From a bacterium (GTDB taxonomy: Bacteria; Patescibacteriota; CPR2; UBA1875; JAJYID01), in assembly GCA_021796415.1 (NCBI GenBank), contig JAJYJC010000001.1, positions 18,742 to 82,741 on the forward strand: DNA of 64,000 bases, read 5' to 3'. The notes under the pieces were generated by a model. That model did not search any database. It had not been told where the DNA came from and worked only from the letters and a program-made list of their open reading frames with translations. The translations under genes were made by a program, and so were the position numbers. Shown here piece after piece: positions 6,234 to 38,921 of the stretch. Positions within the stretch are counted from its first letter, which is position 1. Each line of letters starts with the position of its first letter.

Positions 6234-6236
6234 TTT

Positions 6237-6640: not shown

Positions 6641-6664
6641 AGAGATGAGAATAAATCATTTTCC

Positions 6665-7564: not shown

Positions 7565-7639
7565 GAGAATATTATAAGTACTAAAAACCCAAAATACAAA
7601 AGGGAATTTCACTTGCCAAGGGACGGACCCTTGGCAAGC

Positions 7640-8419: not shown

Positions 8420-9055
8420 TTATTTCTCCACCGTAATCTTTAAAATACGATCTAACTTTTTGCTGTTAAAAACTTCTGCGTACTGCATCAGTTTTTCTTT
8501 ATCGACAGCCTCACCCATGGAAAACCGGTTCAGCCTCAGCTCTTCTATATCTGCCTCGTCATGCAACTTGGCAAGATTCAAATACAAATAGTCTAAAAGC
8601 GCTTTTTCAGGTTCGGCCAAAAGATACATACCCTTGCCGTCATCTACTTTTTTGTATCCAAAAAACAAATCCTTTTTGAGATGACGATAGGCGAATAAGC
8701 CTATATCGTTTTTGAAAGTTCTAGTTGTCTTTGATGTGACAGATGTCACATTATAAACCATCTCGGGGATGATACCGTAGTGCGACAGAGCCCATTCAAG
8801 GCTGATATAGCTTGGTTGATAGATTGTAAAAGCAACGCTTTCATTACTAACTAAATCTTTTCTTGCAGTAAAAAGATATATGCCGTTTTTCAACTTGATC
8901 AACAACTCTTCATCCCTCCACAAAGACAGTTGATATGGGTAGACCCTAAGGCCTGTTTTTCTAATGTCTGCAAGAGAGAAGATTGGCTCTTTGATCTGTC
9001 GATTCATCTCGTTATATTTCATTTTATTATCACTTTCAATAATAAACTGAAACAA
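8420..9055 (-). CDS. AbiEi-like antitoxin / transcriptional regulator partner of AbiEii
   Basis: A ~210-aa protein immediately upstream of the AbiEii gene and end-to-end adjacent to it. This is the typical abiEi-abiEii architecture. Confidence 0.45.
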   Translation of the reverse strand: MFQFIIESDNKMKYNEMNRQIKEPIFSLADIRKTGLRVYPYQLSLWRDEELLIKLKNGIYLFTARKDLVSNESVAFTIYQPSYISLEWALSHYGIIPEMVYNVTSVTSKTTRTFKNDIGLFAYRHLKKDLFFGYKKVDDGKGMYLLAEPEKALLDYLYLNLAKLHDEADIEELRLNRFSMGEAVDKEKLMQYAEVFNSKKLDRILKITVEK

Positions 9056-9062
9056 TATTAAA

Positions 9063-9194
9063 TTAAAAGTTAGCTTGTGTCAAGAATTTTTTGCCTTCAA
9101 AACGGCAGGTGAGAACATTCAAAAAACTGCCGGCAGTAAGACCGAGAAAGAAAAGAAACAAAATCAAAAAGATCAGCATAAATATATTATACAT
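9063..9194 (-). pseudogene. Truncated duplicate of the pilD 5' end (43-codon fragment)
   Basis: The fragment MYNIFMLIFLILFLFFLGLTAGSFLNVLTCRF aligns with the PilD N-terminus LTLFFLAGLIIGSFLNALIYRL. The upstream hairpin ttgccaagggg...ccctttgccaa is also duplicated (7607-7640 versus 9226-9260). Confidence 0.5.
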
Positions 9195-9327
9195 TAAACC
9201 CGGGAGGACAATTTTTTTCATTCACCCATTTGCCAAGGGGCAGCCCTTTGCCAAGCTTGGCAAAAAATGACAAAAATAACATACACAAAATCAGCTTAAT
9301 GAGAGAGTTATCCCCTACATTCCTCTA

Positions 9328-9882
9328 TCACTCTTGATGGAAAATATCGCCAGCCGGAATAATACTAGTGTTAAAATTACATTTACATGTATCAGCAACA
9401 GTGCATACCCCTGTTGCTAAAAGTTTTGCCGCCGTTTCTTCCGTCACAACCCAAAGCCTATATTCGTTCGGTACCGAATACATATGCACATAACAAATAG
9501 TTCCACCGTTTTGAGCCTGGTTTGTAGGAGGGTGAGACGGATCTGGTAAATATTTATTTAGAGATTCACCGTTTTGTAACATGACATAAGCCTGCCTATC
9601 ATTGTTACTACCGGAAACCCCTTGATCAACACCAGGCGGCATACTCTGATTATCACCATAATATTTTTCTATATAAGTTTCTATACTTTTAGCGTCGTTT
9701 CTAAGCTGCGTATCTCTTGCTTGCTGCCTGGCAATAGCAATGGCCCCAATTATCAACGCGGCCAAAACAGCAATAATGGCCATTACTACAACCAATTCAA
9801 TAAGTGTAAAACCTTTTTTTGTACGAAGATTGACTCGCTTTTTAATATTTCCCATAACAACCACGGCGAGTAGCCTCGCCAT
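9328..9882 (-). CDS. Type IV pilin (major pilin-like, PilA family)
   Basis: Contains KKGFTLIELVVVMAIIAVLAALIIGAIAIARQQ, a canonical type IVa pilin N-terminus. There are C-terminal Cys residues. An alternative start lies at 9855. Confidence 0.7.
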   Translation of the reverse strand: MARLLAVVVMGNIKKRVNLRTKKGFTLIELVVVMAIIAVLAALIIGAIAIARQQARDTQLRNDAKSIETYIEKYYGDNQSMPPGVDQGVSGSNNDRQAYVMLQNGESLNKYLPDPSHPPTNQAQNGGTICYVHMYSVPNEYRLWVVTEETAAKLLATGVCTVADTCKCNFNTSIIPAGDIFHQE

Positions 9883-9947
9883 GGCTAGTTATAATGGACA
9901 TCAAAAACCTTCAAGTGAAGAATTTTTGGTAGAAACTGGCACCATCA

Positions 9948-10385
9948 TTAAGGACCCGATATAGTGCCGATGTTATAACCACCTTGACCGTTTGTATTGC
10001 AGTTCCACGGTGCGATTGTAATTGTGTAATTGTGGTTAGTGGAACTACTTACTATATTACCTCCACCACTATTGTCTTGGGTACCACCCCCGTTTCCTGT
10101 ACACGCGCTAGTCGAGAGGTTTGTTGCTGCTATGTTTAGAGTGGTGTCGGTGGTGTTGTCGCTAATCGCCGTACCTAATATGTCAGGATAATTCTTGTTA
10201 GAAGCATAATAAGCCTCCAAAGCAGTTTGAACGGTCCTAGCATTGGACCTGTTGGCAGTTTCAGTAGCTGTGTGTCTGGCGATTGTAATAGCTCCGATGA
10301 TAAGAACCGCTAGAATAGCGATAATTGCCATAACGACAACTAACTCAATAAGGGTAAAACCTTGTTTTTCTTTTAGCTTTCTCAT
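9948..10385 (-). CDS. Type IV pilin (PilA family)
   Basis: Contains KQGFTLIELVVVMAIIAILAVLIIGAITIARH...TALEAYY. Confidence 0.75.
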   Translation of the reverse strand: MRKLKEKQGFTLIELVVVMAIIAILAVLIIGAITIARHTATETANRSNARTVQTALEAYYASNKNYPDILGTAISDNTTDTTLNIAATNLSTSACTGNGGGTQDNSGGGNIVSSSTNHNYTITIAPWNCNTNGQGGYNIGTISGP

Positions 10386-10449
10386 ATTTCACCTCCTTTC
10401 TAATTTTCTTTTTATGTTGATATTTAACCAATATCCTTAAGGTGTGTCA

Positions 10450-10475
10450 ATGATATTCTGTCAGCAGAATATCAT
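10450..10475. promoter_or_regulatory. 11-bp perfect inverted repeat (candidate operator) in the pilin upstream region
   Basis: atgatattctg-tcag-cagaatatcat. It lies about 65 nt upstream of the pilin start and has no T-tract on either side. Confidence 0.3.
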
Positions 10476-10615
10476 CAAATTCTAATCTCTAAATGCTAAA
10501 TGCTAAACAAATCATAAATTTTTAAATTCAAATTATTTAAACACTAATTCGGGATTTATCAAGTATTGCGCCAAGTATTTTCATTGCAACTCATTTTCAA
10601 AAATCATTATCCCCT

Positions 10616-11019
10616 GTCATTCCCGCGCAGGCGGGAATCCAGTCAGTCAATGTTATCATATAAATCTTTCCATTTGGGATTAAAATCTTCTATAAGTTTC
10701 ATCTTCCATTGTCTGTTCCACTTCTTGATTTGTTTTTCTCTTTTGATAGCCTCTTCAATGCTATTTGTTTCTTTAAAGTAAACAAGATTGTGGCATTTGT
10801 ATTTTTTGGTAAAGCCTTCGATTAAATCATTTTTATGTTCATATGCTCTTTTCTTTAAATCTTTGGTAACTCCCGTGTAGAGCGTTCCGTTTCTGTCGCT
10901 GGCCATGATGTAGACATAGTAGGATTTCATTAATAATTATTTTAACTCAACTTTATACTTTATTTAAGCCTCACGGTTCTTGCTTAGCTTGACTGCATTC
11001 CCGCCTGCGCGGGAATGAC
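10616..11019 (-). mobile_element. GIY-YIG nuclease gene flanked by inverted hairpin repeats (copy 2, identical to copy 1)
   Basis: Identical to 6237-6640 except for one mismatch in the right hairpin (gcattc versus ggattc). The flanking sequences differ. Confidence 0.7.
10643..10930 (-). CDS. Stand-alone GIY-YIG nuclease, copy 2
   Basis: The protein is 100% identical to copy 1. Confidence 0.85.
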   Translation of the reverse strand: MKSYYVYIMASDRNGTLYTGVTKDLKKRAYEHKNDLIEGFTKKYKCHNLVYFKETNSIEEAIKREKQIKKWNRQWKMKLIEDFNPKWKDLYDNID

Positions 11020-11133
11020 AGAGAGAGGCAGTTCTTCTTTTTGGATCATATGCCTTTTTGTTTATAATTTCTGTCATTTGATATTGTTTAGTGTTTCGGA
11101 TTTCGTGCTTCGGATTTCGAATTTATTAAAGTA

Positions 11134-12342
11134 CTAGTGTTGCATGAAGATGCCGACATTGTAGATGGGCATGATGATGGAGATAATTATGCTGCCGACA
11201 ATTAGACCCATAACCACTATCATGATAGGCTCAAGCAGCGACTGAAAGCTTTTGACCCAGTTGTCTATCTCGTCGTTATAGTAGTCCGCCAAGTTTGAAA
11301 GCATAGAGTCAATCTCACCGGTGTTTTCGCCGACGCCGATCATCTGCGACACCATGACGGGAAATATGGGATTTTCCTTGATAGCTTGCGACAAACTGCC
11401 CCCTTGTTTTACCTTGCCCCTGGTTTCTCTAATGGCATTTTCATAATGGATGTTTGGCATGGTATCCCCGACGATTTTTAATGCTTCAAGAATGGGCACT
11501 CCGGAGGATATAAGGCTCGACATAGTGCGCGAAAACATCGCCATATAGGACATTTGCAGGAAGTTGCCGAGCAATGGTATGCGGAGCTTCAAGCTGTGCC
11601 AGATGTATCTGCCCGAGTCAGTTTTCACATACATTCTAAGGGCAAAGAAAATAGCCACAACCATCAAAATGACCAGATAATAATAGTGGGCCATCACATT
11701 GCTAAAACCCATAAGTATTTGGGTGGGCAAGGGGAGCTGAGCGTTGCCGAAGCTTGAGTAGAGTGTCTGCATCTGAGGCAAAACGAATATCATCATGAGG
11801 GCGACCACACCGATAACGACACAGAGGAGGAATGACGGATATATAAAGACGGTTTTAATCTTTTTGGCTGTTTTATAGCTTTTTTCAGCTTGGGATGCCA
11901 TATATTCTAAAACCTCATCAATTTTACCGCTTGCCTCGCCGGCCGCAATCATAGAAAGATCAGTTTTGGTAAAGACATCCGGAAATCTCGAAAATGTTGT
12001 TGCCAAGCTATCACCGGCCTCCACATCGCGGATCATTTGCTCTACCATTTTTTTAATCTGATCAGAATGAGTCTGTTCAAGCAATGTGGATAGTGATTGA
12101 GATATTGGAAGGCCGGCATTTGCCATGGTTGCCAGCTGTCGAATAAAGAAAACTTTGTCTTTGACCTTCACCTTATTTAAAAAAGGAATAGCAAATTTTT
12201 CGTGTTTTTCTTCCTTGATTCTGACGGGATATAGCTTCTTGGCAGTAAGCAAAGTTGAAGCTGAACTTTCGGTTTCCGCCTCAACAGTTCCCGTTACCAG
12301 CTCGCCTTGATTATTTCTGGCTTTATATGTAAATTCGCGCAT
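11134..12342 (-). CDS. pilC: Type IV pilus assembly platform protein PilC (GspF family)
   Basis: Two T2SSF-type repeats within a polytopic membrane topology. The ORF's N-terminal extension (IPDQVRNDKKG) is encoded by a hairpin repeat, so the likely start is the ATG at 12342. Confidence 0.85.
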   Translation of the reverse strand: MREFTYKARNNQGELVTGTVEAETESSASTLLTAKKLYPVRIKEEKHEKFAIPFLNKVKVKDKVFFIRQLATMANAGLPISQSLSTLLEQTHSDQIKKMVEQMIRDVEAGDSLATTFSRFPDVFTKTDLSMIAAGEASGKIDEVLEYMASQAEKSYKTAKKIKTVFIYPSFLLCVVIGVVALMMIFVLPQMQTLYSSFGNAQLPLPTQILMGFSNVMAHYYYLVILMVVAIFFALRMYVKTDSGRYIWHSLKLRIPLLGNFLQMSYMAMFSRTMSSLISSGVPILEALKIVGDTMPNIHYENAIRETRGKVKQGGSLSQAIKENPIFPVMVSQMIGVGENTGEIDSMLSNLADYYNDEIDNWVKSFQSLLEPIMIVVMGLIVGSIIISIIMPIYNVGIFMQH

Positions 12343-12354
12343 GATTCCTTTTTT

Positions 12355-12440
12355 GTCATTCCGGACTTGATCCGGAATCAAGTTTTATTTATATGGATCC
12401 TGAATCCCCGCCTGCCGGACGGGCAGGAAGTTCAGGATAA
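12355..12440. repeat. Composite hairpin repeat (two units) at the pilC 5' end
   Basis: gtcattccggacttgatccggaatc followed by ggatcctgaatccccgcctgccggacgggcaggaagttcagga. The same two-unit architecture occurs at 52683-52770 and 38107-38153. Confidence 0.7.
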
Positions 12441-12452
12441 CAATGGAAAAAA

Positions 12453-13529
12453 TTACCCGTGAAGCAATCTTTCAAGCTCCTTCTGGTCGATTGCATAACC
12501 CTTGGCTTCATCAAGGGTAATTCTGCCTGTCTTTATCAAGTTCGCAAGCGTTCTGTCCATAGCCTGCATGCCTTCTGAGGCACCGGTTTGTATTACCGCC
12601 TCGAGCTGATGTGTTTTTTGCTCGCGAATAATGTTTCGTACCGCGGGAGTCACTACTAAAATCTCAGCGGCAGCTACTCTTCCGCCACCAATGGAAGGTA
12701 TAAGCCTTTGGGAAACGATTCCCTGCAAGATATTTGAAAGCTGTACCCTTATCTGCTGCTGCTGATGCGGCGGAAAAACATCAATAATTCTGTCAACTGA
12801 TTGGGCGGCGTTGTTGGTATGCAAAGTAGCAAAAACCAAATGTCCGGTTTCAGCTATGGTAATGGCGGCTGCAATAGTCTCGAGATCGCGCATTTCACCG
12901 ATCAGAACGACATCAGGGTCTTCCCTCAAAACACTGCGAAGGGCGGCTGCAAATGATCTGGTATCATAGTGCACCTCGCGCTGCTCGATTATTGATTTAT
13001 TATGATTATGCGTGTATTCAATCGGGTCTTCAACGGTAATGATGTGGCAGGCTCTTTCTTTATTAATCTTATCAACCATTGCCGCCAGCGTTGTGGACTT
13101 GCCTGATCCGGTCGGCCCGGTTACAAGTACTAAACCTCTCGGATATTCCGTGAACTTTTCAAGGACTTTAGGCATACCCAGTTGCGCCAAACTTCGGATA
13201 TTTACCGGGATAAGCCGGAGAGCTAAACCGACATTGCCTTTTTGGTGGTAAGCATTCGCTCTAAACCTTGCTAAGTCACCATAAGTAAAGGAAAAGTCAA
13301 CCTCTTTGTCACGCTCCAAAATATCTTTTTGGACATCATCTAAGATTGAATATGTGAGAGCCTGTACATCGGTATCTGTTAGACCACTCACCCCGGCTAT
13401 AGGCCTTAACGCACCGTCAATTCGAAGCATGGGAGGCACGCCAACCGTCAGATGAAGATCGCTTGCATCATGCTTAATGACTTCTTCAAGAAAATTCTCA
13501 ATTTTTAATTTTGTGGTCTGCTCAGGCAC
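12453..13529 (-). CDS. pilT: Twitching-motility ATPase PilT
   Basis: Contains LVLVTGPTGSGKSTTLAAMVDKIN (Walker A), HIITVEDPIEY and an Asp box. Confidence 0.85.
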   Translation of the reverse strand: MPEQTTKLKIENFLEEVIKHDASDLHLTVGVPPMLRIDGALRPIAGVSGLTDTDVQALTYSILDDVQKDILERDKEVDFSFTYGDLARFRANAYHQKGNVGLALRLIPVNIRSLAQLGMPKVLEKFTEYPRGLVLVTGPTGSGKSTTLAAMVDKINKERACHIITVEDPIEYTHNHNKSIIEQREVHYDTRSFAAALRSVLREDPDVVLIGEMRDLETIAAAITIAETGHLVFATLHTNNAAQSVDRIIDVFPPHQQQQIRVQLSNILQGIVSQRLIPSIGGGRVAAAEILVVTPAVRNIIREQKTHQLEAVIQTGASEGMQAMDRTLANLIKTGRITLDEAKGYAIDQKELERLLHG

Positions 13530-13585
13530 GCACCCTCCTATTTATTAATATTCTAATGTTTTTTTAAAAATTTGCAAAGGCATAA

Positions 13586-15367
13586 TCATTCCTCAGAAGT
13601 GGTTCTTACAACTTCCTCGACGGTAGTGATACCGGCCAGCGCCTTTAAAAAGCCGTCTTGCTGCATGGTAACCATACCTTCTTTTACTGCCTGATCTTGG
13701 ATATCACTAGCTGAAGACTGGGACGTTATCAGATCCTCTATCGTTGGGCTGACATTAAATATCTCGTATACCCCAATTCTTCCCCAAAACCCTGTATTCT
13801 TGCAGGATTCACAGCCTTTCCCTTTGTAAAGCTTAAAGGTTTCATCTTCGACAAAAGGCAATTTATCAAAACCAAGCTCCGTGGTCTTTTCCTTGGGATC
13901 ATTCTTTGAGGGCAGAACCCCTTTCAATGAAGCTTTAATGGCTTTGGTCAGTGCGAGAGTTGCCCTGTATTCTACCTTGCAGTTTTCACAAATTCTTCTC
14001 ACCAGCCTTTGCGCCACTATTGTATTAACCGTAGATGCGATAAGAAACGGCTCAATGTCCATGTCAATCAATCGCGGCAAAGCGCTTGCGGCTGAGTTTG
14101 TATGCAATGTGGAAAGGACAGTATGGCCGGTCAAAGCTGACTGAACGGCAAGATCAGCCGTCTCTTTGTCGCGAATCTCTCCAACCATTATGACGTCCGG
14201 GTCCTGGCGGAGCATTGACCGAAGACCTGATGCAAATGTAAGCCCGACGCCATTATTTACCTGGATCTGGTTTATGCCCGGCACATTATATTCAACAGGG
14301 TCTTCGATGGTTATAATGTTGACACTCGGAGTATTTAGCTTGGACAAAATAGCGTAAAGTGATGTTGATTTACCCGAACCAGTCGGTCCAGTCGACAGAG
14401 TCATGCCATGAGGTTTCTTGAAGCTTTCCTCAATAATCCTGTAAGCTCTTCCCTTGATGCCTAAGTTTTCTAAGGTAATCATACCGTTTGTCTTATCAAG
14501 AAGCCTGATGACTACCTTCTCTCCATATACTATTGGCGTAATCGAAATACGAAGGTCAATTTCGCGGCCTTCCATATTTAGCTGAAATCTGCCATCCTGA
14601 GGTACCCGATGTTCGTCAATTTTCAGATTAGATAGAATCTTAATTCTGGAAACTAAGGCCGGATGAATATGTTTCGGGAGGGCCATGGTGTTATAAAGCA
14701 AGCCATCAATCCTATAACGAACTTTGATATCCTTGTCTCTCGGTTCAATGTGGATGTCCGAAGCACGAGACTTAGCAGCATATTCCAAAATTGTATTTAA
14801 TGCCCTCGTAATAGGCGCGTCTTGCGTAATCGTTGCGGCATTATTCTCTTTTTCTTTTTTCTTCTCATTTTCCTGCAGGCTGGACTCCGGCTGTTTCTGT
14901 ATATCACCTATAACCGTTTCGACCTCAAATGAATAATCGTCATACTGCCCCAACAGTTTTGAGATGCTTTCTGCTGAAGCTAAATATGGCTTTACTTTTA
15001 GTCCCGTCTTTTTTTCTATAAACTCAATAGACTGAATGTCATTTGGGTTTAACATTGCTACATTTAAAAATTCCCCAACTTTTCCAAAAGGTATAATCTT
15101 GTATTTTTCAGCGACTTTTTTAGAAATAATATCAAGGATCTGTTTGTCAATCCTTTTTGCCTTTAAATCCACATAAGGAAGACCGGAACTGACCGCTACT
15201 ACTTTGGTTAGCTCTTCATTAGATATTCCAGGCATATCACGCAAAATATTCTCGACAGATTTTCCGGTTTCTGCACTCTGTACTTTAATGAGATCAAGCT
15301 GTTTTTGGCTTATGAGACCGAGCTTAACCAGAAGATCTACCAGCTTTTTTTCATCTCTGACAGCCAT
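13586..15367 (-). CDS. pilB: Type IV pilus assembly ATPase PilB (GspE family)
   Basis: Has an N-terminal T2SE_N domain and LSTGPTGSGKSTSLYAIL, plus a C-terminal zinc-binding CxxC pair. Confidence 0.85.
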   Translation of the reverse strand: MAVRDEKKLVDLLVKLGLISQKQLDLIKVQSAETGKSVENILRDMPGISNEELTKVVAVSSGLPYVDLKAKRIDKQILDIISKKVAEKYKIIPFGKVGEFLNVAMLNPNDIQSIEFIEKKTGLKVKPYLASAESISKLLGQYDDYSFEVETVIGDIQKQPESSLQENEKKKEKENNAATITQDAPITRALNTILEYAAKSRASDIHIEPRDKDIKVRYRIDGLLYNTMALPKHIHPALVSRIKILSNLKIDEHRVPQDGRFQLNMEGREIDLRISITPIVYGEKVVIRLLDKTNGMITLENLGIKGRAYRIIEESFKKPHGMTLSTGPTGSGKSTSLYAILSKLNTPSVNIITIEDPVEYNVPGINQIQVNNGVGLTFASGLRSMLRQDPDVIMVGEIRDKETADLAVQSALTGHTVLSTLHTNSAASALPRLIDMDIEPFLIASTVNTIVAQRLVRRICENCKVEYRATLALTKAIKASLKGVLPSKNDPKEKTTELGFDKLPFVEDETFKLYKGKGCESCKNTGFWGRIGVYEIFNVSPTIEDLITSQSSASDIQDQAVKEGMVTMQQDGFLKALAGITTVEEVVRTTSEE

Positions 15368-15369
15368 GA

Positions 15370-15615
15370 TTAAAATCCAGCAAAGGGGTTATCCCTGCCT
15401 ATACCATCCATGGGCACACTTCCATAATCCTTTCTTTCCTGCAGCTTTTGGATAGCAGTATTATCAATATTGGAGTTAAACTCTGTAGTTTGGGTGGTGC
15501 TGCCGGCAGTTTTTACTTGTCCGCCATTACCGCCAACCCCCCCCATAATGAAATAAATACATGCCGCAATAACAATAATACAAACAGCTAGCACTATGAT
15601 GTCCTTTTTCTTCAT
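15370..15615 (-). CDS. Small membrane protein within the pilus operon (function unknown)
   Basis: One N-terminal TM helix. Its coding sequence is end-to-end with pilB and pilO. Confidence 0.3.
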   Translation of the reverse strand: MKKKDIIVLAVCIIVIAACIYFIMGGVGGNGGQVKTAGSTTQTTEFNSNIDNTAIQKLQERKDYGSVPMDGIGRDNPFAGF

Positions 15616-16268
15616 TGCTTAGATCCTCCTGTTTGCCCGGATTGTCTGTAATACGCTTTGTAGTTCAAGCTAACTTTAAAGCTGTCCCCTTGTGATGTAT
15701 CCACTTGGAAGCTATTTAAATAAACAAATCTGTGGGCATTTTCGGAAATTGACAGGAAATTTTTAAAGTCATTATAACTCGGGAATGTCACATCATAACT
15801 ATAATCAGAAGATGTAAGATTGATTCCGGAAGATCCGGTTGCTGACTCTCCGGAGACGGCTGCTGAAGATTGAGCTCCAGAAGCAGTTGTTGCAGCGGGC
15901 GCAGAGCTAGCGCTTGAGTTTGCTGAGGCTTCCTTGATCCCGGTAGTGCTTCCGTTGGCCGCAGCTATCATTCCGTCAATTTGCACAAATAAACCGCCGA
16001 CATCTTTCTGGTCCGGGATGGCACCATTTACCACGTTTTCCTGGTCTTTTAAGTCTGATTCTTTATCTTTTAAGACCCTGAGTTTGTCTAGTTTGTCCTT
16101 CAAAAGTGAGAGTTCTTGTTTGTTTGTCTTTAAATCCTGCCCGCTTTTCCCGATACCCTTAAAAAGAGGGACCATAATAAATAATATTAAGATAAACATT
16201 GCAATAAGCGTTATGACAACCACGCCCAACGTCCAATAATATTTTTCAAATTTTTTGTTTCCTACCAT
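15612..16268 (-). CDS. pilO: PilO-like pilus biogenesis protein
   Basis: An N-terminal TM helix followed by a coiled coil. Located between pilN and pilB. Confidence 0.55.
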   Translation of the reverse strand: MVGNKKFEKYYWTLGVVVITLIAMFILILFIMVPLFKGIGKSGQDLKTNKQELSLLKDKLDKLRVLKDKESDLKDQENVVNGAIPDQKDVGGLFVQIDGMIAAANGSTTGIKEASANSSASSAPAATTASGAQSSAAVSGESATGSSGINLTSSDYSYDVTFPSYNDFKNFLSISENAHRFVYLNSFQVDTSQGDSFKVSLNYKAYYRQSGQTGGSKQ

Positions 16269-16837
16269 AAGACACCTTGCTTAAGATCAAAGGAAATGTC
16301 GAACTTTACATTTCCATTTGTACCTTGGTCATATCCGGTAACAACAACGTTATTAAAAAGTTTTTGATTCTGATTATTCCCGCTTTGCTGATAATTATAA
16401 TCATCTAAAGCTTTGATTGCCCTGGCAATAGAAACTACATTCTTGCCAACTGCACTGGCTTTGAATGTATTGCCATTTTGCGAAAACTGCGTATATTGAA
16501 TGTCGTTTGGCGTCACCTTTTCAAGCTGGGGCAAGAAAAGCGACCATTTAGGTTCTTGTGCCTGAACCTGATTGATAGCCGCGAGTCCCTGGTTGATATC
16601 ATCCACAATTCTCTCAATATCGGCGTAATTTTTCAGCTCATCATTTGTGCTCGCAATATCCTGTTTAGTCCTTGATAAATTATAATCTAAAGCCCACTTG
16701 TAGCCTTGCAATACTAGCAAGGCAAGGATTGTGATTGCTAAAATAGCCATAGCCGCAATAGTAACAAAAAAGTTTCGGCGCTTAGTTTTGATCTTTTCTT
16801 GTTTTACATCGGGCATTAGATTTATTTTTGACATCAT
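16262..16837 (-). CDS. pilN: PilN-like fimbrial assembly protein
   Basis: Starts with the KINLMPD (INLLP-type) motif followed by a TM helix. Confidence 0.6.
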   Translation of the reverse strand: MMSKINLMPDVKQEKIKTKRRNFFVTIAAMAILAITILALLVLQGYKWALDYNLSRTKQDIASTNDELKNYADIERIVDDINQGLAAINQVQAQEPKWSLFLPQLEKVTPNDIQYTQFSQNGNTFKASAVGKNVVSIARAIKALDDYNYQQSGNNQNQKLFNNVVVTGYDQGTNGNVKFDISFDLKQGVLW

Positions 16838-17874
16838 AGCCCCCTCATGGCCAGCCCGACAGCCACTGCATAATCGGCGGCATTTTGGTTTAGCTGATTT
16901 GTGATATCCGGCTTATGAACCACTGAAGCCCAGGGATTACCGTAAACAACATTTATTCCCAGATTGTCCGACAGAAAATCTTGCATACCCAAGAGCTTAG
17001 AGCAGCCGCCAGTCATTTTAAGCAAGGTTATATTTTGGCTGTATTGATCCTGATAATATTTAGTTGAGCGTTCTATCTCTTCGGTGAGATTATTTAAAAT
17101 AGACCTAGCTGCCTTAAATATTTTCCCTTCCATCTTGTCTTTATCAATGCCAAACTTGGTTTTGAACTGTTCTGCTTGAGTAGTTTCCATACCAAGATTT
17201 TGCGCTATCGCCCTGGTTATCACTTGCCCTCCCACGGGAACAGTTCTCGTAAGAGTCAAGACACCATTTTGCACCACGCTTAGCTCTGTCATAAAGGTGC
17301 CGATATCAACTATCATATAGAGCGGTTCATTGGTATGCAATGCCCTGGCGACGGCTATTGCATTTATTTCGATCGCATCAAGGTCTAAACCGGCCTCCTC
17401 TACCACATTAGCCATTTTCTGGGTTTTTTGGATAGGGGCAGCAATAATCATAACGGATATTTCCCCTGTATCCGGAGATTGTCCGATTACCTGCCAATCA
17501 ATCTTTATCTCTGAAATTTTCAGGGGAACATTTTGTTCCGCTTGATAGCTGATGGCCTTTTTCACTTCAGCCATTGGCATTTTGGGTATTTTAACCACTG
17601 TAGTAAATATAGATCCGCCGGGCAACGAGACTATGACATTTTTTGTCACTAAATGCATTGAATGCACTAATTCCTTTACTATTCCGCCCAGCCTCTTCAC
17701 ATCAACGGCGCTGTCACTCTGGGCTAATCCTTCAGGAATTGGAGCACTGCCAAAGGATATCAGCTCAAACTTACCGAAAGATTTTTTCAGCTGAACGATT
17801 TTTACCGCGCTTGTTCCTATATCAATCCCAAAATAGTTGGTATTTTCTTTTAAAATATTGAGGCCAGGTAACAT
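16834..17874 (-). CDS. pilM: Type IV pilus assembly protein PilM (actin-like ATPase fold)
   Basis: Contains FGIDIGTSAVKIVQL. It is the first gene of the pilMNO-B-T-C operon. Confidence 0.8.
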   Translation of the reverse strand: MLPGLNILKENTNYFGIDIGTSAVKIVQLKKSFGKFELISFGSAPIPEGLAQSDSAVDVKRLGGIVKELVHSMHLVTKNVIVSLPGGSIFTTVVKIPKMPMAEVKKAISYQAEQNVPLKISEIKIDWQVIGQSPDTGEISVMIIAAPIQKTQKMANVVEEAGLDLDAIEINAIAVARALHTNEPLYMIVDIGTFMTELSVVQNGVLTLTRTVPVGGQVITRAIAQNLGMETTQAEQFKTKFGIDKDKMEGKIFKAARSILNNLTEEIERSTKYYQDQYSQNITLLKMTGGCSKLLGMQDFLSDNLGINVVYGNPWASVVHKPDITNQLNQNAADYAVAVGLAMRGL

Positions 17875-18057
17875 TTACCCTCCAAAAGTAATAAGTTGTT
17901 ATCCTTGTAAACCATTAAACAGCAAAAGAGGAATAAGAGTCAAGGAGAAATTCGCTAATCGCTCATAATTTCCAATTCCCAATTTCTAATTTCCAATCAA
18001 AAGCCCAATGATTAAATGCCAAAATAAGAAATCGTACAAGACCACCTTACAAGATAT

Positions 18058-20709: not shown

Positions 20710-22416
20710 TCAGTTTATTACGGTCCCCAGCACTTCATTGAAGTAGCCGTTCCACATCACCCGCTGGGAAGACATCACTTTAGCAGGCGTCCCTTTGGTC
20801 GGATCCGGATCTCCGGTCCAAGCCTGAACCTCAACCGGTCCGCCCATCACGCCGGGGAACATCGGTGTTACCTTGCCGCCGGCTTTGATAAATCCGGGAT
20901 TGTCGGAGGTATTGGGCTCGACAGCGCCGCCGACGATTATATGGTAATAGACATCATCGGAGGCCGAGGGATTGGCCACCAAAACCCAGTTGAGTGAACC
21001 GGGGCTTTGCTGGTCGTACCAAGTCCAGTGGTAATCACTGGATAAAGCCGAGGACGAGTAGCCGGGCACTTCTTCGAACGAAGGGCCGGCAATGACTCTC
21101 TGCGAGGCAATCAAATTCGGAGATGTTCCGGAACATGCCCCATACTGGTCAAAGACCGCGCTGCAGCTTTTGACCTCGACCGGCCCGCCCATCACGCCGG
21201 GGAACATCGGTGTTACCTTGCCGCCGGCTTTGATAAATCCGGGATTGTCGGAGGTATTGGGCTCGACAGCGCCGCCGACGATTATATGGTAATAGACATC
21301 ATCGGAGGCCGAGGGATTGGCCACCAAAACCCAGTCGGTCATCCCCGCACTCTGCTGGTCGTACCACGTCCAGAGATAATCTCCAGAAAGATCGCCAGCC
21401 GTTATGCCAGGAACCTCATTGAAGGCATTGCCGTAATTTGATAACACCCTCTGTGACGCCATGACATTGACAGGTGTTGTCTTGCTGCTGTCGGTCCATG
21501 CCTGGACTTCGACAGGACCACCTATTTTCCCAGGGAAGGTGGGGGTGATATTCTGGTGGCCCAGTAGCCATCCTGAAGAACAATTGGGTCCTGTACCGTG
21601 ATAGCATGCTGTTCCCGGATCCTGGCCGGCGATCGTGATTTCGTAATAGATCATCGAGTCGTTCGGGTTGGCTATCAACACCCAGTCGGTCATCCCTGAG
21701 CTTTGCTGGTCGTACCAGGTCCAGTAGTAGTGATCGGAGAGGCTCGATTCGTCTGTCCCCAACACTTCTTCAAGCGAGTTGCCTCCCTTGGGCCAGAGAA
21801 TGCGCTGGCTGACGATTCCTTTGTCTCCGGTCATAGACGATGCTGTGACCGGTCCACCCATAATGCCGTATCGCGGCGTGATGGTCTGTCCCGGACCGAT
21901 AGCTCCGCCATTGGGCAGAGCTTTATTACTGCCGGCAATGCTTAACTGGAAGTTAAGCGGAGCGGCAGCGCTAGCCGGATTGGACAGAAGTACCCAGTTG
22001 TCGCCACCTGCATCGTCGTACCAGGTCCACAGATAGTTCCGTACCGTTGGAGCGTTTTCGACATTAATAGTTACCTGGTTAGAAGAACAACCGCTTTGCG
22101 CGGGGACAAAATATTCGTAATAAGTCCCCGGGGTTGATGGCGGCGTTACACTATATGTAACGGGAGTGCTATCAAGTCCACCCCAGCCACCGCCTCCTCC
22201 CCAGCTGTTATACTCAAGATAAGCAGCTGAGGGATTTGAAGCCACCGTAATTGTAACTGACTGACCAGGGGCCACCGTAACCGACGGATTTGCTTCCGCC
22301 GTCGGTGCCGTAAAGGTCAGTGTGGGGCATGTAGCCGCCATCGCCGTTGAGGCGAAAGCAGCCAGAGCCATCACCGCAATGAGTGCGGCGATGAATATGA
22401 CGAATAACTTCTTCAT
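20710..22416 (-). CDS. Secreted repeat protein with five ~90-aa W-x-W-Y-D repeats
   Basis: Has a signal peptide (MKKLFVIFIAALIAVMALAAFASTAMA). WTWYDQQS...DWVLVANP modules recur. An internal ~160-nt segment is duplicated perfectly (20855-21000 and 21179-21340). GC is elevated. Confidence 0.5.
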   Translation of the reverse strand: MKKLFVIFIAALIAVMALAAFASTAMAATCPTLTFTAPTAEANPSVTVAPGQSVTITVASNPSAAYLEYNSWGGGGGWGGLDSTPVTYSVTPPSTPGTYYEYFVPAQSGCSSNQVTINVENAPTVRNYLWTWYDDAGGDNWVLLSNPASAAAPLNFQLSIAGSNKALPNGGAIGPGQTITPRYGIMGGPVTASSMTGDKGIVSQRILWPKGGNSLEEVLGTDESSLSDHYYWTWYDQQSSGMTDWVLIANPNDSMIYYEITIAGQDPGTACYHGTGPNCSSGWLLGHQNITPTFPGKIGGPVEVQAWTDSSKTTPVNVMASQRVLSNYGNAFNEVPGITAGDLSGDYLWTWYDQQSAGMTDWVLVANPSASDDVYYHIIVGGAVEPNTSDNPGFIKAGGKVTPMFPGVMGGPVEVKSCSAVFDQYGACSGTSPNLIASQRVIAGPSFEEVPGYSSSALSSDYHWTWYDQQSPGSLNWVLVANPSASDDVYYHIIVGGAVEPNTSDNPGFIKAGGKVTPMFPGVMGGPVEVQAWTGDPDPTKGTPAKVMSSQRVMWNGYFNEVLGTVIN

Positions 22417-22696
22417 CTTCTTCACCCTTTCCTTGTTTTTGTTTTTTTTGATTGAATGAATAAAGCTATATCTCCACAAGAAGAGTCTCCTCCGATCTCT
22501 TCTTGATTATTCTTATTACAAGGAACAAATCAACTTAAGTACATCTTCTTCCTTAGTATTGGACACTAAATAAATTTTATCCTTAAGCTGATTTGTTATC
22601 ATATCACATAAGCATTATTTTGGCAAGATTTTTTTGCTGAACCACATGCACTTTTTGTCATCCATGGATTTTTACTAGGAATTTGTGCTTTAAAAT

Positions 22697-22846: not shown

Positions 22847-24013
22847 ATGGGCCTATCTATCGGAATAGTCGGTCTGCCGAATGTCGGCAAAAGTACGCTT
22901 TTCAACGCCTTGACAAAAAACCAAGCGGAAGCTTCAAATTACCCCTTTTGCACCATCGATCCAAATGTAGGCATTGTGGTGGTCCCGGACGAACGGTTGC
23001 AAAAGCTGGCTGAAGTTATTCCAACCCAGAAAATCGTCCCGGCAATCGTTGAATTTATCGATATTGCGGGAATAGTGAAGGGCGCAGCAGAAGGCGAAGG
23101 CCTCGGCAATAAATTTCTGGCCAATATACGCGAGTGTGACGCGATTGCTGAAGTCGTACGTGTATTTTCAGATACAAATATCACTCATGTGGCCGGAAAA
23201 GTTGATCCAACCTCCGACATGGAAACCATTAAAATGGAACTGGTGCTTTCCGATCTCGAAACAGTGGGGAAAAGGGCAGCCAAGCTGGCTAAAGAAGTAA
23301 AAGGCGATCCAAAACTCAAAGAAGCTTTGGATTTAGTCCAAAAAATTCAGACCGAACTTGAGAAAGGAAGGGCAGCCCGAGAATTGGATTTGTCTGAAAA
23401 AGATATCGAGAAAATTAAAGACTTAAACCTGCTTACTTTAAAGCCGCATATTTATATTTTCAATGTCGATGAAGAAAATCTTACCTCTCATGTCATTCCC
23501 GCGCAGGCGGGAATCCAGGACATTATTGGTATAGATTCCCGCCTGCGCGGGAATGACAAAGATGACAGAAATGACAAAAATAGTGGAGAAAATAAAGTCG
23601 CTCAAAATGACAACAACCATGTCTTAATTTCAGCAAAGATTGAATCTGAACTAAACGAGCTTTCCGAGGAAGAAAAGAAAGAATATCTTTCAGAGCTGGG
23701 ACAATCTGAGACGGGATTAAACCGGCTAATCAAGATAGGATATGATCTGCTTGGCCTCCAAACCTACTTCACAGCCGGAGAAAAGGAGATCAAGGCATGG
23801 ACCATTCATAAAGGGGACAAAGCGCCGCAAGCCGCCGGCGTCATCCATACCGACTTTGAAAAAGGGTTCATCAAAGCCGAGACTGTTTCCTGGCAGGATC
23901 TAGTTGAACATAAAGGCTGGGCAGGCGCTAAAGCGGCTGGCAAAGTCCGCCTCGAGGGCAAAGATTACACCGTCCAAGACGGCGATGTGATGGTGTTTAA
24001 GTTTAATGTTTAG
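22847..24013 (+). CDS. ychF: Ribosome-binding ATPase YchF (Obg-like GTPase) carrying an in-frame hairpin-repeat insertion
   Basis: Contains [18 protein letters not shown] (G1) and a TGS domain at the C-terminus. The roughly 45-aa insert [10 protein letters not shown]...[11 protein letters not shown] is encoded by repeats at 23492-23556. Confidence 0.9.
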
Positions 24014-24044
24014 GGAGATCGTCAATCCACTACTTTTTTCGCTC

Positions 24045-24400
24045 GTCATTCCCGCGCAGGCGGGAATCCAGCCTAAATAATTTCATTATACAAATCTCTC
24101 CATTCAGGATTAGATTTTTCGATTAGTCGCAGCTTCCATCTTCTTTCCCATTTCTTAAGCCGTTTTTCTCGTTTTATTGCTGCTTCAGCTGTCTGATGTT
24201 CTTCGAAGTAAACTAAAAGGTGCGTTTGATATTTATTACTGAATCCCCCAACAAGATCATTTTTGTGTTGGTAAACTCTTTTAATTAGCTCAGAGGTAAC
24301 CCCAATATAAAGAGTCCCATTTTTCTTACAGGCCAAAATATAAACCCAAAATTTTTTCATATCTCACAACTTTCTGGATTCCCGCTTGCGCGGGAATGAC
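24045..24400 (-). mobile_element. GIY-YIG nuclease gene flanked by inverted hairpin repeats (copy 3)
   Basis: gtcattcccgcgcaggcgggaatcc sits at 24045-24069 and ggattcccgcttgcgcgggaatgac at 24376-24400. Confidence 0.7.
24073..24360 (-). CDS. Stand-alone GIY-YIG nuclease, copy 3 (divergent paralog)
   Basis: Contains FWVYILACKKNGTLYIGVT...RVYQHK. Confidence 0.85.
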   Translation of the reverse strand: MKKFWVYILACKKNGTLYIGVTSELIKRVYQHKNDLVGGFSNKYQTHLLVYFEEHQTAEAAIKREKRLKKWERRWKLRLIEKSNPEWRDLYNEII

Positions 24401-24433
24401 GCTATCTCCCCATTCAAGTTCAGAATGACAGAA

Positions 24434-27210: not shown

Positions 27211-28034
27211 ATTAGAAATTCCTTATTTCCTTTCGCGCCCGTTATCGGCGATTCGGTCATGCCCTTTACTTTAAATCCTTGCTCGCTTGCAAAGGCTTTA
27301 ATGCCAGTTACTACTTCTTGCCTTAAATTTTCATCTTTTATAACACCTTTGGTTTTGTCGGCTTCTTTCTTGCCAACTTCGAATTGGGGCTTGATCAGTA
27401 AAACACATTCGGTCTTGTAATCGGCAATTTTTTTGATCTGGGGCATGATCTTTTTGAGTGATATAAATGAAACATCGCAAAGGAAATAATCTACCTGATC
27501 AACCGTCATTCTGGCTTGGCCAGAATCTGTGTTTTGATCATGGTTTTTTGATCCTGGACAAGCCAGAGCCTGTTCTGGTCGTAATCCAGAAATAACCCGC
27601 TTAGAAAAATCTTGCCAAGAATCAATATTACGAAAATTAGTCCGCTCCATCACAACGACGAGCGGATTTTCCCTCAGCTTTTGGTCAAGCTGCCCCCAAC
27701 CGACATCTATAGCATAAACTTTTCGAGCGCCTTTTTGTATGGCAAAATCCACAAAACCGCCCGTTGAAGCGCCAATATCACAAATTACCTTGTCTTTAAA
27801 GCACAACTGGAAATCTTCGTAAGCCTTTTGAATCTTTAAAGCACCGCGGGAAACATAGGGCAATTTTCCCTTTATCTCAATGTCAGAAGCCTCGTCAATC
27901 GTTGTGCCGGCTTTATCAATCCTCTGCCCGCTGGCAAAAACCTGCCCGCTCATAAGCAGGGCTTGGGCTTTGGTTCTCGAGTCAGCCAAACCCCTTTCAA
28001 CTAATAATATGTCGATTCGCTTTTTCATTTTCAA
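27195..28034 (-). CDS. tlyA: TlyA-family rRNA 2'-O-methyltransferase carrying an in-frame hairpin-repeat insertion
   Basis: Has an S4 domain (RIDILLVERGLADSRTKA) and an FtsJ-like MTase (VICDIGASTGGF). The insert ...SGQARMTV... is encoded by the repeat at 27505-27571. Confidence 0.85.
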   Translation of the reverse strand: MKMKKRIDILLVERGLADSRTKAQALLMSGQVFASGQRIDKAGTTIDEASDIEIKGKLPYVSRGALKIQKAYEDFQLCFKDKVICDIGASTGGFVDFAIQKGARKVYAIDVGWGQLDQKLRENPLVVVMERTNFRNIDSWQDFSKRVISGLRPEQALACPGSKNHDQNTDSGQARMTVDQVDYFLCDVSFISLKKIMPQIKKIADYKTECVLLIKPQFEVGKKEADKTKGVIKDENLRQEVVTGIKAFASEQGFKVKGMTESPITGAKGNKEFLIWLGK

Positions 28035-28036: not shown

Positions 28037-28439
28037 GTCATTCTGAACTTGATTCAGAATCCAGGGATTTCTCATACAAACCATCCCAATTTGGATTTAC
28101 GCCTTCAATCAAATCTAGCTTCCACTTACATTTCCAATTCTTAATTTGTTTTTCTCTTTTAATGGCCTCTCCTACGCTATTCGTTACTTCAAAATAAACT
28201 AGCTTATGAACCGGGTATTTACCAGTAAATGATTCTGATTTAATGTTTTTGTGTTCGTAAATTCTTTTTATTAAATCATTTGTAGCACCAGTATAAATAG
28301 TTCCGTTTCTTTGATTTGCTGTCATGCAAACATAATATGATTTAATTGCTTTTTATTTCTGGATTCCGGATCCACCTGCGCTAAAGCTACGGAGGGACAG
28401 GTCAACTGATTATATATTTATTGTATAGTCCGGAATGAC
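28037..28439 (-). mobile_element. GIY-YIG nuclease unit flanked by hairpin repeats (copy 4, decaying)
   Basis: gtcattctgaacttgattcagaatcc (28037-28061) encodes the C-terminus and the stop codon. A composite hairpin lies at 28361-28439. Confidence 0.6.
28038..28325 (-). CDS. Stand-alone GIY-YIG nuclease, copy 4 (ancestral start codon apparently mutated to ATT)
   Basis: The in-frame upstream sequence reads IKSYYVCMTANQRNGTIYTG, compared with MKSYYVYIMASDRNGTLYTG in copy 1. The C-terminal LDSESSSE* is repeat-encoded. Confidence 0.65.
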   Translation of the reverse strand: MTANQRNGTIYTGATNDLIKRIYEHKNIKSESFTGKYPVHKLVYFEVTNSVGEAIKREKQIKNWKCKWKLDLIEGVNPNWDGLYEKSLDSESSSE

Positions 28440-28508
28440 AAGGCGATTGCGTATAGTCAATGAGTGCGGAAGTCGTGTTTGATCAAGTTCAGAATGGCAG
28501 AGGAAAAA

Positions 28509-33023: not shown

Positions 33024-33042
33024 TCTAAGCTCCCGAGTGGCG

Positions 33043-33385
33043 TCATTCTGGCTTGGCCAGAATCTATCTAAGAATTTCTCCATACAAATCCTTAAATTCA
33101 GGATTTTCCTTTCTGATTAAATCCAATTTGTCTCTTCTGTTCATGTCTTTAATTTGTTTCTCTCGAACAATAGCTTTTATAGCTGTATCAAATACCTCAA
33201 AATAAACTAATTTATGAATATGATACCTTTTCGTAAATCCTTCAACCAGCTCATTTTTATGCTGGTAAACCCTTTTTCTGAGGTCATTAGCTATACCGGC
33301 GTAGAGCGTTGGTCTTTCGTTTGTCATAATATATGTGAAGTATTGTTTATTCATAGGCTTTGATTCTGGCCAAGCCAGAATGACG
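33043..33385 (-). mobile_element. GIY-YIG nuclease unit flanked by type-B hairpins (copy 5), inserted between recA and recX
   Basis: gtcattctggcttggccagaatc sits at 33043-33065 and gattctggccaagccagaatgac at 33363-33385. Confidence 0.7.
33064..33354 (-). CDS. Stand-alone GIY-YIG nuclease, copy 5 (divergent paralog)
   Basis: Contains YFTYIMTNERPTLYAGIAN...RVYQHK. Confidence 0.85.
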   Translation of the reverse strand: MNKQYFTYIMTNERPTLYAGIANDLRKRVYQHKNELVEGFTKRYHIHKLVYFEVFDTAIKAIVREKQIKDMNRRDKLDLIRKENPEFKDLYGEILR

Positions 33386-34478: not shown

Positions 34479-34880
34479 CTAATCGCTCAAGTTAAGAATT
34501 CTTTTAAATCTTACTTCATCAGGACCAAAATTTACCAAGATTCCAAGTTTTAATCCTGTGGTTCTCAAATATTCACTTATCTGTTTTACACTAGCCCTAT
34601 TAAGTCTATTTCCTGCTTTCAGCTCTATAATTATTTTGTCTTCTATTAAGAAGTCAAGGAAGCGGCTACCAACTTTTTCGCCCTTAAAGTAAATCGGGCA
34701 ATGAATCTGTCTCGTATAGTTTAAAGCTGCTTCCTTAAAGGCCAATTCCAAAGAATCTTCATAGGATTTTTCTCGCAGCCCGGGCCCCAATTCATTATGC
34801 ACTTTGAACATCAATCCTATTAGCTTGTAGGAAAGTTCAGGATAAGCTATTTCTTTTCTAATAGTTGTATTTATAAACAT
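34479..34880 (-). CDS. GxxExxY family protein (PD-(D/E)XK-like)
   Basis: Contains ...EYLRTTGLKLGILVNFG..., a family often associated with 23S rRNA intervening sequences. Confidence 0.55.
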   Translation of the reverse strand: MFINTTIRKEIAYPELSYKLIGLMFKVHNELGPGLREKSYEDSLELAFKEAALNYTRQIHCPIYFKGEKVGSRFLDFLIEDKIIIELKAGNRLNRASVKQISEYLRTTGLKLGILVNFGPDEVRFKRILNLSD

Positions 34881-38162: not shown

Positions 38163-38921
38163 TCAAATTAATTTTTGTTGTTTAGGTTGATTGTCATTAT
38201 TATTTAAATTTTCTTCTTCAATTCTCTTCAGAATCTTGGGGATTTTATTGAAATCTGCTTGCAGTGTTTTCTTCATGCTTCCGTTATAAAGCGCGACTGC
38301 GGGATGATATAGTGCCAAAAATACTTGTTTTCGGCCACCCTTTGCCTGCCCCACACTTGAAATAGTGCGTGGGTCATTCTCATCCCCCCCTTTGTCATCC
38401 CCGCCTTCTCTTTTGTCATTCCCGCGCAGGCGGGAATCCAGTCCTTCAAAATGCAATTCCTTGCGAAATGCATTGCCATGAGCCTTTGAAATCTGTAATG
38501 ACGGGAAAAATCTGTTCATGGCATGCCGGCCTAGAAATACGATTAACTTTGGATCAATAAGTTCAATTTGCTTTTTCAAATACGGCCAGCACATTTGCGC
38601 CTCTTCCGGCAATGGATCGCGGTTGTTCGGCGGCCTGTGCTTCAAAACATTTGCTATGTAGACATCTTTTCGCTGCCAGCCTAAGCTTTGAATCAATTCA
38701 GTTAGAAGCTGTCCCGCTCGGCCGACAAATGGTTCGCCTTGCTGGTCTTCATCCTTGCCCGGCGCCTCGCCGATAAACATGACGTCAGCCGTTTCGCTGC
38801 CGACTCCCGGCACATCCTTGGTTTTTGTCTTAAACAGCGAACATCGCTCGCAAGCAGAAATAAGCTTATTCAAAGCCGAAATACTATCAGCACCTAAAAT
38901 ATCCTCGTCAGTTATTTTCAT
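38163..38921 (-). CDS. Family 4 uracil-DNA glycosylase carrying an in-frame hairpin-repeat insertion
   Basis: Contains [32 protein letters not shown]. The insert [19 protein letters not shown] is encoded by repeats at 38373-38439. Confidence 0.8.

Follow-up and report, generated by a model that had tools for sequence, protein, structure and literature searches.

In a 64-kb stretch of a Candidate Phyla Radiation (CPR)/Patescibacteria genome (contig JAJYJC010000001.1, positions 18,742 to 82,741; hereafter the window), we observe short DNA hairpins with a GTCAT tag that are read in frame within at least six, and probably seven, conserved genes, among them ychF. Our reading, to which we assign a probability of roughly three in four, is that these repeats belong to the CGTC-tagged repetitive extragenic palindromes (REPs) and to the NTS hairpins or Ssn-related motifs (SRM) of Ssn nucleases, that hairpins bracketing a small GIY-YIG nuclease gene (ssn) form a mobile hairpin-ssn-hairpin unit, and that the copies inside genes are harmless survivors. 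In the proposed course of events, the hairpin-ssn-hairpin would behave as a discrete mobile unit, of which doublets and singlets of hairpins would be gene-less derivatives. Copies would land mostly between genes, and an intragenic copy would persist only if it adds a multiple of three nucleotides, is read in a frame free of stops and sits in a permissive loop. The spread would be driven by the Ssn nuclease, which elsewhere cuts single-stranded DNA (ssDNA) upstream of the hairpin, a role that we infer.

The host gene ychF (22847-24013, + strand; 388 aa) has the Pfam domains MMR_HSR1 and YchF-GTPase_C and matches the Haemophilus influenzae YchF structure 1jal with E = 2.7e-119. Within its open reading frame (ORF) lies a 66-nt type A doublet (23492-23557), consisting of a GTCAT-hairpin, an 18-nt spacer and an inverted hairpin: GTCATTCCCGCGCAGGCGGGAATC at 23492-23515 recurs as its exact reverse complement at 23534-23557, a perfect 24-nt inverted pair, and the whole is translated in frame as 22 aa. 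The initial annotation had ended this repeat at 23556, one base short. The doublet shares 27-28 nt at 100% identity with the hairpins on either side of the ssn genes, and as RNA it is computed to fold into a perfect 25-bp stem (-55.4 kcal/mol). The insert is completed by decayed partial copies of the GGGAATGAC end (GATGAC, AAATGAC and AAAATGAC; 23558-23625, + strand). At this latter site, one relative (L076) retains GGCGGGAATGAC, and three clustered changes set the two strains apart; the doublet is unchanged between these strains, which differ at 2.7% of nucleotide sites.

At the protein level, the YchF insert spans aa 214-258, for which the matching stretch of 1jal is 19 aa long, and orthologs at 80-83% identity (359-362 aa) lack it. 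Other relatives of YchF carry different hairpin peptides at the same site, for example SGQARMT, IPAFAGMT, WIPASAGMT, CHPERSGAESKDP...GRND and VIPAT.... Among 104 parsable homologs, the G4-G5 linker is 13-27 aa long in 88 and 33-89 aa long in the remaining 16, most of which bear recognisable hairpin-derived peptides. In an AlphaFold2 model of YchF with a mean predicted local distance difference test score (pLDDT) of 84.9, the blocks of the insert score 39-64 between flanks above 90, and values below 50 are found only in the insert and in a short N-terminal stretch (aa 30-35); the low confidence of the insert is partly expected, as the 104-sequence alignment underlying the model is almost free of it. 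An earlier model from a 22-sequence alignment (pLDDT 43) was discarded as unusable.

The overall form of the hairpins in the window is N-GTCAT(T/C)C, a stem of ~8 bp, a loop of 3-5 nt and GAATC-C(A/T)(G/T). Several stem variants coexist, which we resolve as type A (CCGCGCAGGCGG), type B (TGGCTTGGCCA), type C (CGGACTTGATCCG), type D (TGAACTTGATTCA) and the longer or looser types E to H. The core ATTCCCGC-N4-GCGGGAAT is present in 11 copies, compared to 0 in 100 shuffles, and the heptamers GTCAT(T/C)C or G(A/G)ATGAC occur 67 times, compared to ~16 by a rough estimate that assumes uniform base composition; most of these heptamers head a hairpin of the form GTCATTC-stem-loop-stem-GAATC. Hairpins beyond type A were found with a purpose-made hairpin finder, as the published SRM pattern recovers type A only, and the chance hits of this finder (6732, 15768, 16512, 40960, 53225 and 56753) were put aside. 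The hairpins are arranged as singlets, as head-to-head doublets (23492, 27505, 48311, 50837, 52683 and 62149) or as pairs bracketing a 95-aa GIY-YIG (Ssn-type) gene. A further subfamily, GTCATTCTGAG...GAAGAATC, has copies at 43118, 50777, 62316 and 62362 in addition to one in tsaD.

The stem is directly followed by C in 97% of 33 window hairpins, as it is in 190 hairpins from other phyla. The base preceding GTC is T in 67% and C in 27% of cases, rather than always C. The 14 nt upstream of GTCAT are G-poor and pyrimidine-rich, both in the 33 window hairpins and in the 190 hairpins of the loci L004-L083, with G at 3-12% in the 5' flank of the window hairpins versus a background of 20%. SsnA is reported to cut in the 5' flank of its hairpin, where the published motif fixes only one base (PMC11893778). 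We also observe partial copies of the tagged arm (GTCATTCCCGC; on the other strand GCGGGAATGAC) at 19-21 nt from a full hairpin, with a purine-rich tract between them, at 7183/7204, 38373/38394/38415 and 47970/47989 in the window and beside the ssn genes of four other loci (L011, L026, L050 and L060). Repeated cuts at an Ssn site, followed by repair, may have left them behind.

Five GIY-YIG genes of 95-96 aa, all on the minus strand, are found in the 64 kb, each with GIY-YIG as its sole Pfam domain and each (5/5) bracketed by an inverted hairpin pair. Unit 1 (6236-6646) consists of a hairpin, a 95-aa gene (6264-6551) and an inverted hairpin, and unit 2 (10615-11025; gene at 10643-10930) is a second copy of it. 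Unit 3 (24044-24401) contains a hairpin at 24044-24071 and a gene at 24073-24360, unit 4 (28037-28500) a type D hairpin and a gene at ~28071-28346, and unit 5 (33041-33385) a gene at 33064-33354 with type B hairpins on both sides. The ssn copies thus pair with stem variants: type A accompanies copies 1-3, type D copy 4 and type B copy 5. Of these, copy 4 is probably dead: it has a Cys in place of the Tyr of the GIY motif and lacks an ATG at the aligned N-terminus. Its ORF continues into the hairpin, where, as the initial annotation had pointed out, GAATGAC supplies the TGA stop codon. That annotation listed the GIY-YIG genes but missed them as the cognate Ssn-type nucleases of the hairpins.

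In Neisseria, the NTS hairpin CGTCATTCCCGCGMAVGCGGGAATCYRG, which contains dRS3, is bound as ssDNA by SsnA, which cuts a few nucleotides upstream; SsnA is a 94-aa single-domain GIY-YIG nuclease that modulates transformation, its gene usually has the hairpin on each side, and Ssn homologs and SRMs are widespread (PMC11893778). The hairpin at 24044-24071 is an exact match to this NTS consensus, and the published SRM pattern has 10 matches in the window versus a mean of 0.16 in shuffles. The counterparts of Y6, Y17 and E64 of SsnA in the window proteins are, by residue count, Tyr7, Tyr18 and Glu65. Searches with the GIY-YIG genes gave no family name in NCBIfam and only distant UPF0213 matches in the PDB. 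In a scan of GTDB species genomes, homologs at 60-71% identity appear in many groups, including Omnitrophota, Smithella, Saccharibacteria and other CPR, Zixibacteria, Nitrospirota, Dehalococcoidia, Planctomycetota and Proteobacteria. Among the 80 homologous ssn loci retained for flank analysis, a GTCAT hairpin is found upstream in 68, an inverted one downstream in 62 and both in 53. A scan of viral contigs found no relatives of ssn, and carriage by phages is thus without support.

Units 1 and 2 provide the sharpest view of the ends. They are near-identical, with one mismatch over ~410 bp, from T-GTCAT (6236) to GAATGAC+AGAGA (6646), and their flanks are unrelated; near-identity that stops at the hairpin tags in this way points to a discrete unit bounded by the tags. 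On the ssn-sense strand, the identity reaches 5 nt upstream of GTCAT, which, together with the G-poor 5' flank, indirectly hints at Ssn cutting upstream of the hairpin. In a relative with an 85%-identical PilD and conserved gene order (L084), the spacer between pilD and the pseudopilin gene is 12 nt long and has no ssn unit, and in that relative the site of unit 2 likewise has none, being occupied instead by an IS200-type gene with unrelated hairpins. (The contig in question, L087, positions 1-560, ENA ERZ27233565 k141_1484476, encodes an IS200-type Y1 transposase with its own unrelated hairpins, CCACCAGGCTCTGCCTGGTGG and CCACCAACTCTGTTGGTGG.) The intragenic copies are 100% identical to the ends of ssn units over 27-35 nt, including a few bases inside and outside the palindrome. 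The sharp ends and the absence at syntenic sites support mobility of the hairpin-ssn-hairpin unit.

The initial annotation had named seven hosts of in-frame hairpins, and for all of them the repeats were located, the reading frames are intact and Pfam confirms the identities: YchF, prepilin peptidase (PilD), TlyA (S4 and FtsJ), uracil-DNA glycosylase (UDG) family 4, a metallophosphoesterase (Metallophos_2), TsaD and a FemAB-like protein. The pilD gene (6665-7612, - strand; Pfam A24_N_bact and Peptidase_A24), called by NCBI at 299 aa, has a layered insert. Its older layer is a decayed type B remnant common to several relatives (7244-7267, - strand; GLDSGQAG, aligned with GLDSGQARMT in relatives), to which were later added a type A hairpin (7166-7189), with 35 nt at 100% identity to the end of ssn unit 1, and then a partial copy 21 nt away (7200-7210). 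The type A part (7163-7210, - strand) is read as 16 aa. The partial copy, 21 nt or 7 aa, is not present in the 85%-identical ortholog (P0242), and orthologs at 55-62% identity lack the insert; the PilD orthologs are 253-273 aa long.

The remaining inserts vary in type and in state of decay. In tlyA, a type B doublet (27505-27571) combines an intact hairpin (27505-27527), which shares 25 nt at 100% identity with the hairpin next to ssn copy 5, with a degenerate inverted partner (27548-27571); it is read as QALACPGSKNHDQNTDSGQARMT, and the insert occupies aa 140-183 compared to 10 aa in 3hp7. The UDG family 4 gene (38373-38441, + strand, read as 23 aa) contains a type A hairpin (38415-38438), 32 nt of which are 100% identical to the end of ssn unit 1, and two partial copies at 21-nt spacing (38373 and 38394), giving an insert of aa 143-199 where 4zbx has 24 aa. 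The metallophosphoesterase gene holds a nested composite (47970-48089, + strand), a type H hairpin whose long loop contains a type E element (47989-48029), the inner copy having no stable computed fold on its own; the insert spans aa 62-114 versus 16 aa in MJ0936. The outer shell of this composite is the same long-loop hairpin that is found between genes at 4364-4410, and the FemAB-like gene shares both DNA ends with it in its own type H insert (56798-56851, - strand), read as DSRRSLSARSSAKEDGND. The FemAB-like insert lies outside the ortholog comparison, as the PDB alignments begin downstream of it.

In tsaD (56073-56198, - strand), the hairpin is a decayed type F copy (56116-56140, SHSEAMKNP) of the GTCATTCTGAG...GAAGAATC subfamily that has lost its stable fold, and it sits within an older, lineage-specific insert of low complexity (ISNFQ..., NTQYPIHNT). 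The insert covers aa 122-163, compared to 6 aa in Thermotoga maritima TsaD (6nak). Orthologs at 74-77% identity (348-354 aa) are without it, and other relatives of TsaD have hairpin peptides in this loop and in three further loops. Another repeat that is not a hairpin (AATTTCCAATTTCCAAT, read as ISNFQ or FPISNFQSNPN) is found at 56141-56198 and 17966-17998, with 3 copies in the window versus 0.06 expected. It occupies the same insertion loops of TsaD and, in relatives (P0004, P0005, P0008, P0012, P0014 and P0125), of YchF.

As close orthologs lack the inserts and other relatives have different hairpin peptides in the same loops, the segments are lineage-specific insertions and not ancestral sequence; by these alignments, clean, lineage-specific insertion is established for six hosts. 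The insertions had been proposed to be clean and in frame, and the closest orthologs of YchF, TsaD and PilD indeed align without the segments. The expectation of tolerated loops is likewise borne out, with all seven inserts located between conserved blocks and the YchF insert of low pLDDT between its confident flanks, while the description of the hosts as essential overstates the case for ychF and pilD. The hairpins reported as N-terminal extensions of pilC and recX lie near the 5' ends of maximal ORFs and probably precede the true starts.

Coding sequence is strongly depleted of hairpins. Although only ~16% of the window is non-coding, 15 of 38 hairpin hits fall in coding sequence, compared to 32 expected (p = 5e-10). 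With chance hits and copies at ORF edges removed, ~23 are intergenic and ~9 internal, a density ~14-fold lower in genes. Types A and B are free of stops in five of the six frames, the sixth containing the TGA of GAATGAC, and all open frames are in use among the inserts here and in relatives; the peptides VIPAQAGIQ, LDSRLRGND and DSGQARMT are translated hairpin arms. Of the two explanations offered initially, that the repeats had been shaped to lack stops or that insertions in other frames had been purged, the depletion makes purging of disruptive copies sufficient, and no shaping is needed. Taken together, the ~14-fold depletion and the five stop-free frames suggest that the intragenic copies are rare survivors in permissive loops.

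The phenomenon itself is already known, in the form of CGTC REPs and Rickettsia palindromic elements (RPEs) within ORFs and of the SRM-Ssn association, and the repeats are not a new class. CGTC-tagged REPs were defined by Di Nocera et al. in 2013, who equated CGTC-1 with Neisseria dRS3, and CGTC-1 and CGTC-4 with Rickettsia RPE-6 and RPE-4; they described elements wholly inside ORFs and in frame, with dimers encoding 20-30 aa and clusters 43-82 aa, and judged the family to be without a dedicated transposase or enzyme (PMC3733652). Our hairpins resemble these REPs in the (C/T)GTC tag, the 8-9 bp stem starting with AT, the 4-5 nt loop and the CCA-like tail, with the 8-bp stem from AT, 4-nt loop, CCA tail and head-to-head dimers of CGTC-1 all present. 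They are also mostly head-to-head dimers and mostly intergenic, with a minority wholly inside ORFs in frame, and their ends can supply start-proximal or terminal residues. They differ from that survey in a host phylum outside it, in the several stem variants and in the seven host genes within 64 kb (PMC3733652). With the NTS/SRM-Ssn system they share the exact NTS consensus, the hairpin-ssn-hairpin layout, the single domain of ~94 aa, the wide phyletic spread and the non-palindromic flanks that orient the hairpin (GTC upstream, C right after the palindrome). The Ssn paper mentions no intragenic or in-frame copies and offers mobility only as a hypothesis, whereas the window has insertions in coding sequence, sharply bounded near-identical units and several stem variants (B to H) beyond the reach of its pattern (PMC11893778).

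The REP/REPIN systems with REP-associated tyrosine transposases (RAYTs) also have short hairpins, replicate as doublets and keep a small nuclease gene between hairpins of its own, but their tag is GTAG rather than GTCAT, and the gene so bracketed encodes an HUH/Y1 transposase rather than a GIY-YIG nuclease. Classical RPEs have, to our knowledge, no associated enzyme and are restricted to Rickettsia. They are ~100-150 bp long, have a conserved peptide and comprise ten Rickettsia families, while the units here are 24-66 nt, with composites of up to 120 nt. The resemblance to RPE-1 and similar elements lies in palindromes that are in frame in unrelated conserved proteins at fold-compatible positions (Ogata et al.; PMC10969869). 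The initial annotation had likened the inserts to RPEs and, to a lesser degree, to Correia elements. The first likeness is closer than had been supposed, with RPE-4, RPE-6 and dRS3 in the same CGTC superfamily according to the literature (PMC3733652). [quoted passage not shown] Our literature search, incomplete in its coverage, found no paper on in-frame hairpins in CPR or tying RPEs to GIY-YIG nucleases.

A different mobiliser would be a Y1 transposase, of the RAYT or IS200 type, encoded elsewhere in the genome and moving the hairpins as REPINs, with the GIY-YIG gene between them by chance. In a preprint, the Neisseria hairpin of the same sequence (ATTCCCGCGCAGGCGGGAATC) is taken to be a REPIN that a Group 2 RAYT mobilises, and a Y1_Tnp gene is present in the close relative L087. 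However, that IS200-type gene is flanked by unrelated hairpins with no GTCAT hairpin nearby, and a Pfam scan of 60 window ORFs, a set that includes nearly all ORFs of at least 100 aa (with 59119-60474, 60509-61750 and 63395-63988 outside it), revealed no Y1 or RAYT transposase. Di Nocera et al. report no CGTC-flanked RAYT in any species (PMC3733652), and ssn is bracketed on both sides in 5/5 cases here and 53/80 elsewhere. We consider this explanation decidedly unlikely. Somewhat easier to entertain, but still unlikely in our view, is that the hairpins do not move at present and are sites of a domesticated Ssn, for example one controlling incoming ssDNA in transformation, that were spread and homogenised by recombination and gene conversion, with the intragenic copies as by-products. 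The role of SsnA in Neisseria transformation, the abundance of competence and type IV pilus genes in the window, with two ssn units inside that locus, and the uniformity of copies over 27-35 nt despite diverged host genes would all agree with such a history. Yet the sharp ends, unrelated flanks and presence/absence between relatives are better explained by insertion than by conversion, different hairpin subfamilies entered the same loops independently, and one ssn copy is apparently dead, as expected of a selfish element.

That the inserts are selected for a function, be it as loops of use to the protein or as structures by which the mRNA tunes expression, appears improbable to us. It would account for the repeated occupation of the same loops in different lineages, for the ychF doublet that is unchanged between strains 2.7% apart and for its very stable RNA stem, but close relatives live without the inserts, the peptides vary by lineage in family, frame and length, and copies decay (tsaD, the type B remnant of pilD and the tail in ychF); a hotspot is also expected from plain tolerance of the loop. 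An assembly artefact or a set of pseudogenes is barely credible. The source is a metagenome-assembled genome (MAG), and repeats can mislead assemblers, but in every host gene the repeat stands between two halves that are in frame, and at 24-66 nt the repeats fall below the k-mer length to which the contig names (k141) point for the assembly. Moreover, identical insert-bearing proteins are found in at least three independent assemblies (ENA ERZ27233565, ENA ERZ27236928 and NCBI GCA_027334665.1), and a 97%-identical YchF variant with the same doublet is found in a fourth, the MAG JAJYFH01.

Several points weigh against the reading that we prefer, that of a mobile hairpin-ssn-hairpin unit with harmless intragenic copies. 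We know of no transposition of the unit, observed here or in the literature, and of no GIY-YIG nuclease that rejoins DNA, so that any spread would need host repair or recombination. The spacers of the relative L084 are too diverged for a clean empty site or a target-site duplication to be defined. What Chenal et al. showed is cleavage and an effect on transformation, not mobility (PMC11893778). The SRM pattern is matched by type A only; types B to H fail it and are assigned by their GTCAT...GAATC frame and by their bracketing of ssn paralogs. Finally, we infer that the inserts are translated and functionally neutral, and the 25-bp RNA stem inside ychF could alter expression.

Elsewhere in the window, two small genes (34479-34880 and 43738-44121) encode a PD-(D/E)XK_3 protein (PF13366) and a 23S rRNA intervening-sequence protein (PF05635), the latter with hairpins upstream at 43118 and 43215; both families are often found as stand-alone, possibly selfish ORFs. 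A 589-aa ORF without a Pfam match (20710-22479), locally GC-rich and with three tandem units of ~345 nt (74-85% identity), may encode a repeat-containing surface protein. Another GC-rich stretch at 40-42 kb was considered as rRNA and ruled out, as Rfam and tRNA scans of the window gave no matches. Type B hairpins also flank each of two genes identified by eye from their translation, a chorismate-mutase-like gene (61866-62137, + strand) and groES (62389-62652, + strand), so that ordinary genes, too, are bracketed. A 95-aa ORF between hairpins at 61866-62153 (- strand) was rejected as a GIY-YIG gene; the greedy ORF picker had chosen the wrong strand there, and the real gene lies on the + strand. 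At the start of the window, a competence/type IV pilus locus (348-17874) encodes ComEC, a XerC/D-like integrase, five pseudopilins, PilD, PilC, two PilB/T ATPases and PilM, and inserted among these genes are the two near-identical ssn units, with their one mismatch, and an AbiEii toxin gene pair (7640-9055). The position of the ssn units in this locus may matter, as SsnA modulates transformation in Neisseria (PMC11893778).

Three literatures, on the coding palindromes of Rickettsia, on CGTC REPs and dRS3, and on the Ssn nucleases described in 2025, deal with one repeat superfamily, and this locus unites all three aspects in a phylum from which none had previously been described. What the window adds is a new host phylum, the CPR/Patescibacteria, which were largely unknown at the time of the 2013 CGTC REP survey, and a high local density, with seven host genes in 64 kb. 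It also shows loops that were occupied repeatedly and independently in different relatives, as well as composites that are layered or nested, and it provides sequence-level support for the mobility of the ssn unit, which had been only a hypothesis in the Ssn paper. In practical terms, translated hairpins account for many of the extra segments and odd hypothetical peptides of CPR proteins, and gene callers extend ORFs through such hairpins. A bolder extension, which we hold as tentative and on balance doubtful, is that the hairpin-ssn-hairpin is a transposable element, currently active, whose mechanism would define a new class, with Ssn as the long-missing mobiliser of CGTC REPs (RPE-4, RPE-6 and dRS3) and its gene-less derivatives in CPR as a continuing source of loops. 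If so, a GIY-YIG single-strand nuclease would take the role that HUH transposases have for REP and IS200 elements, and gene-less hairpins in CPR would be a continuing supply of new loops in core proteins, re-entering the same permissive or preferred sites.

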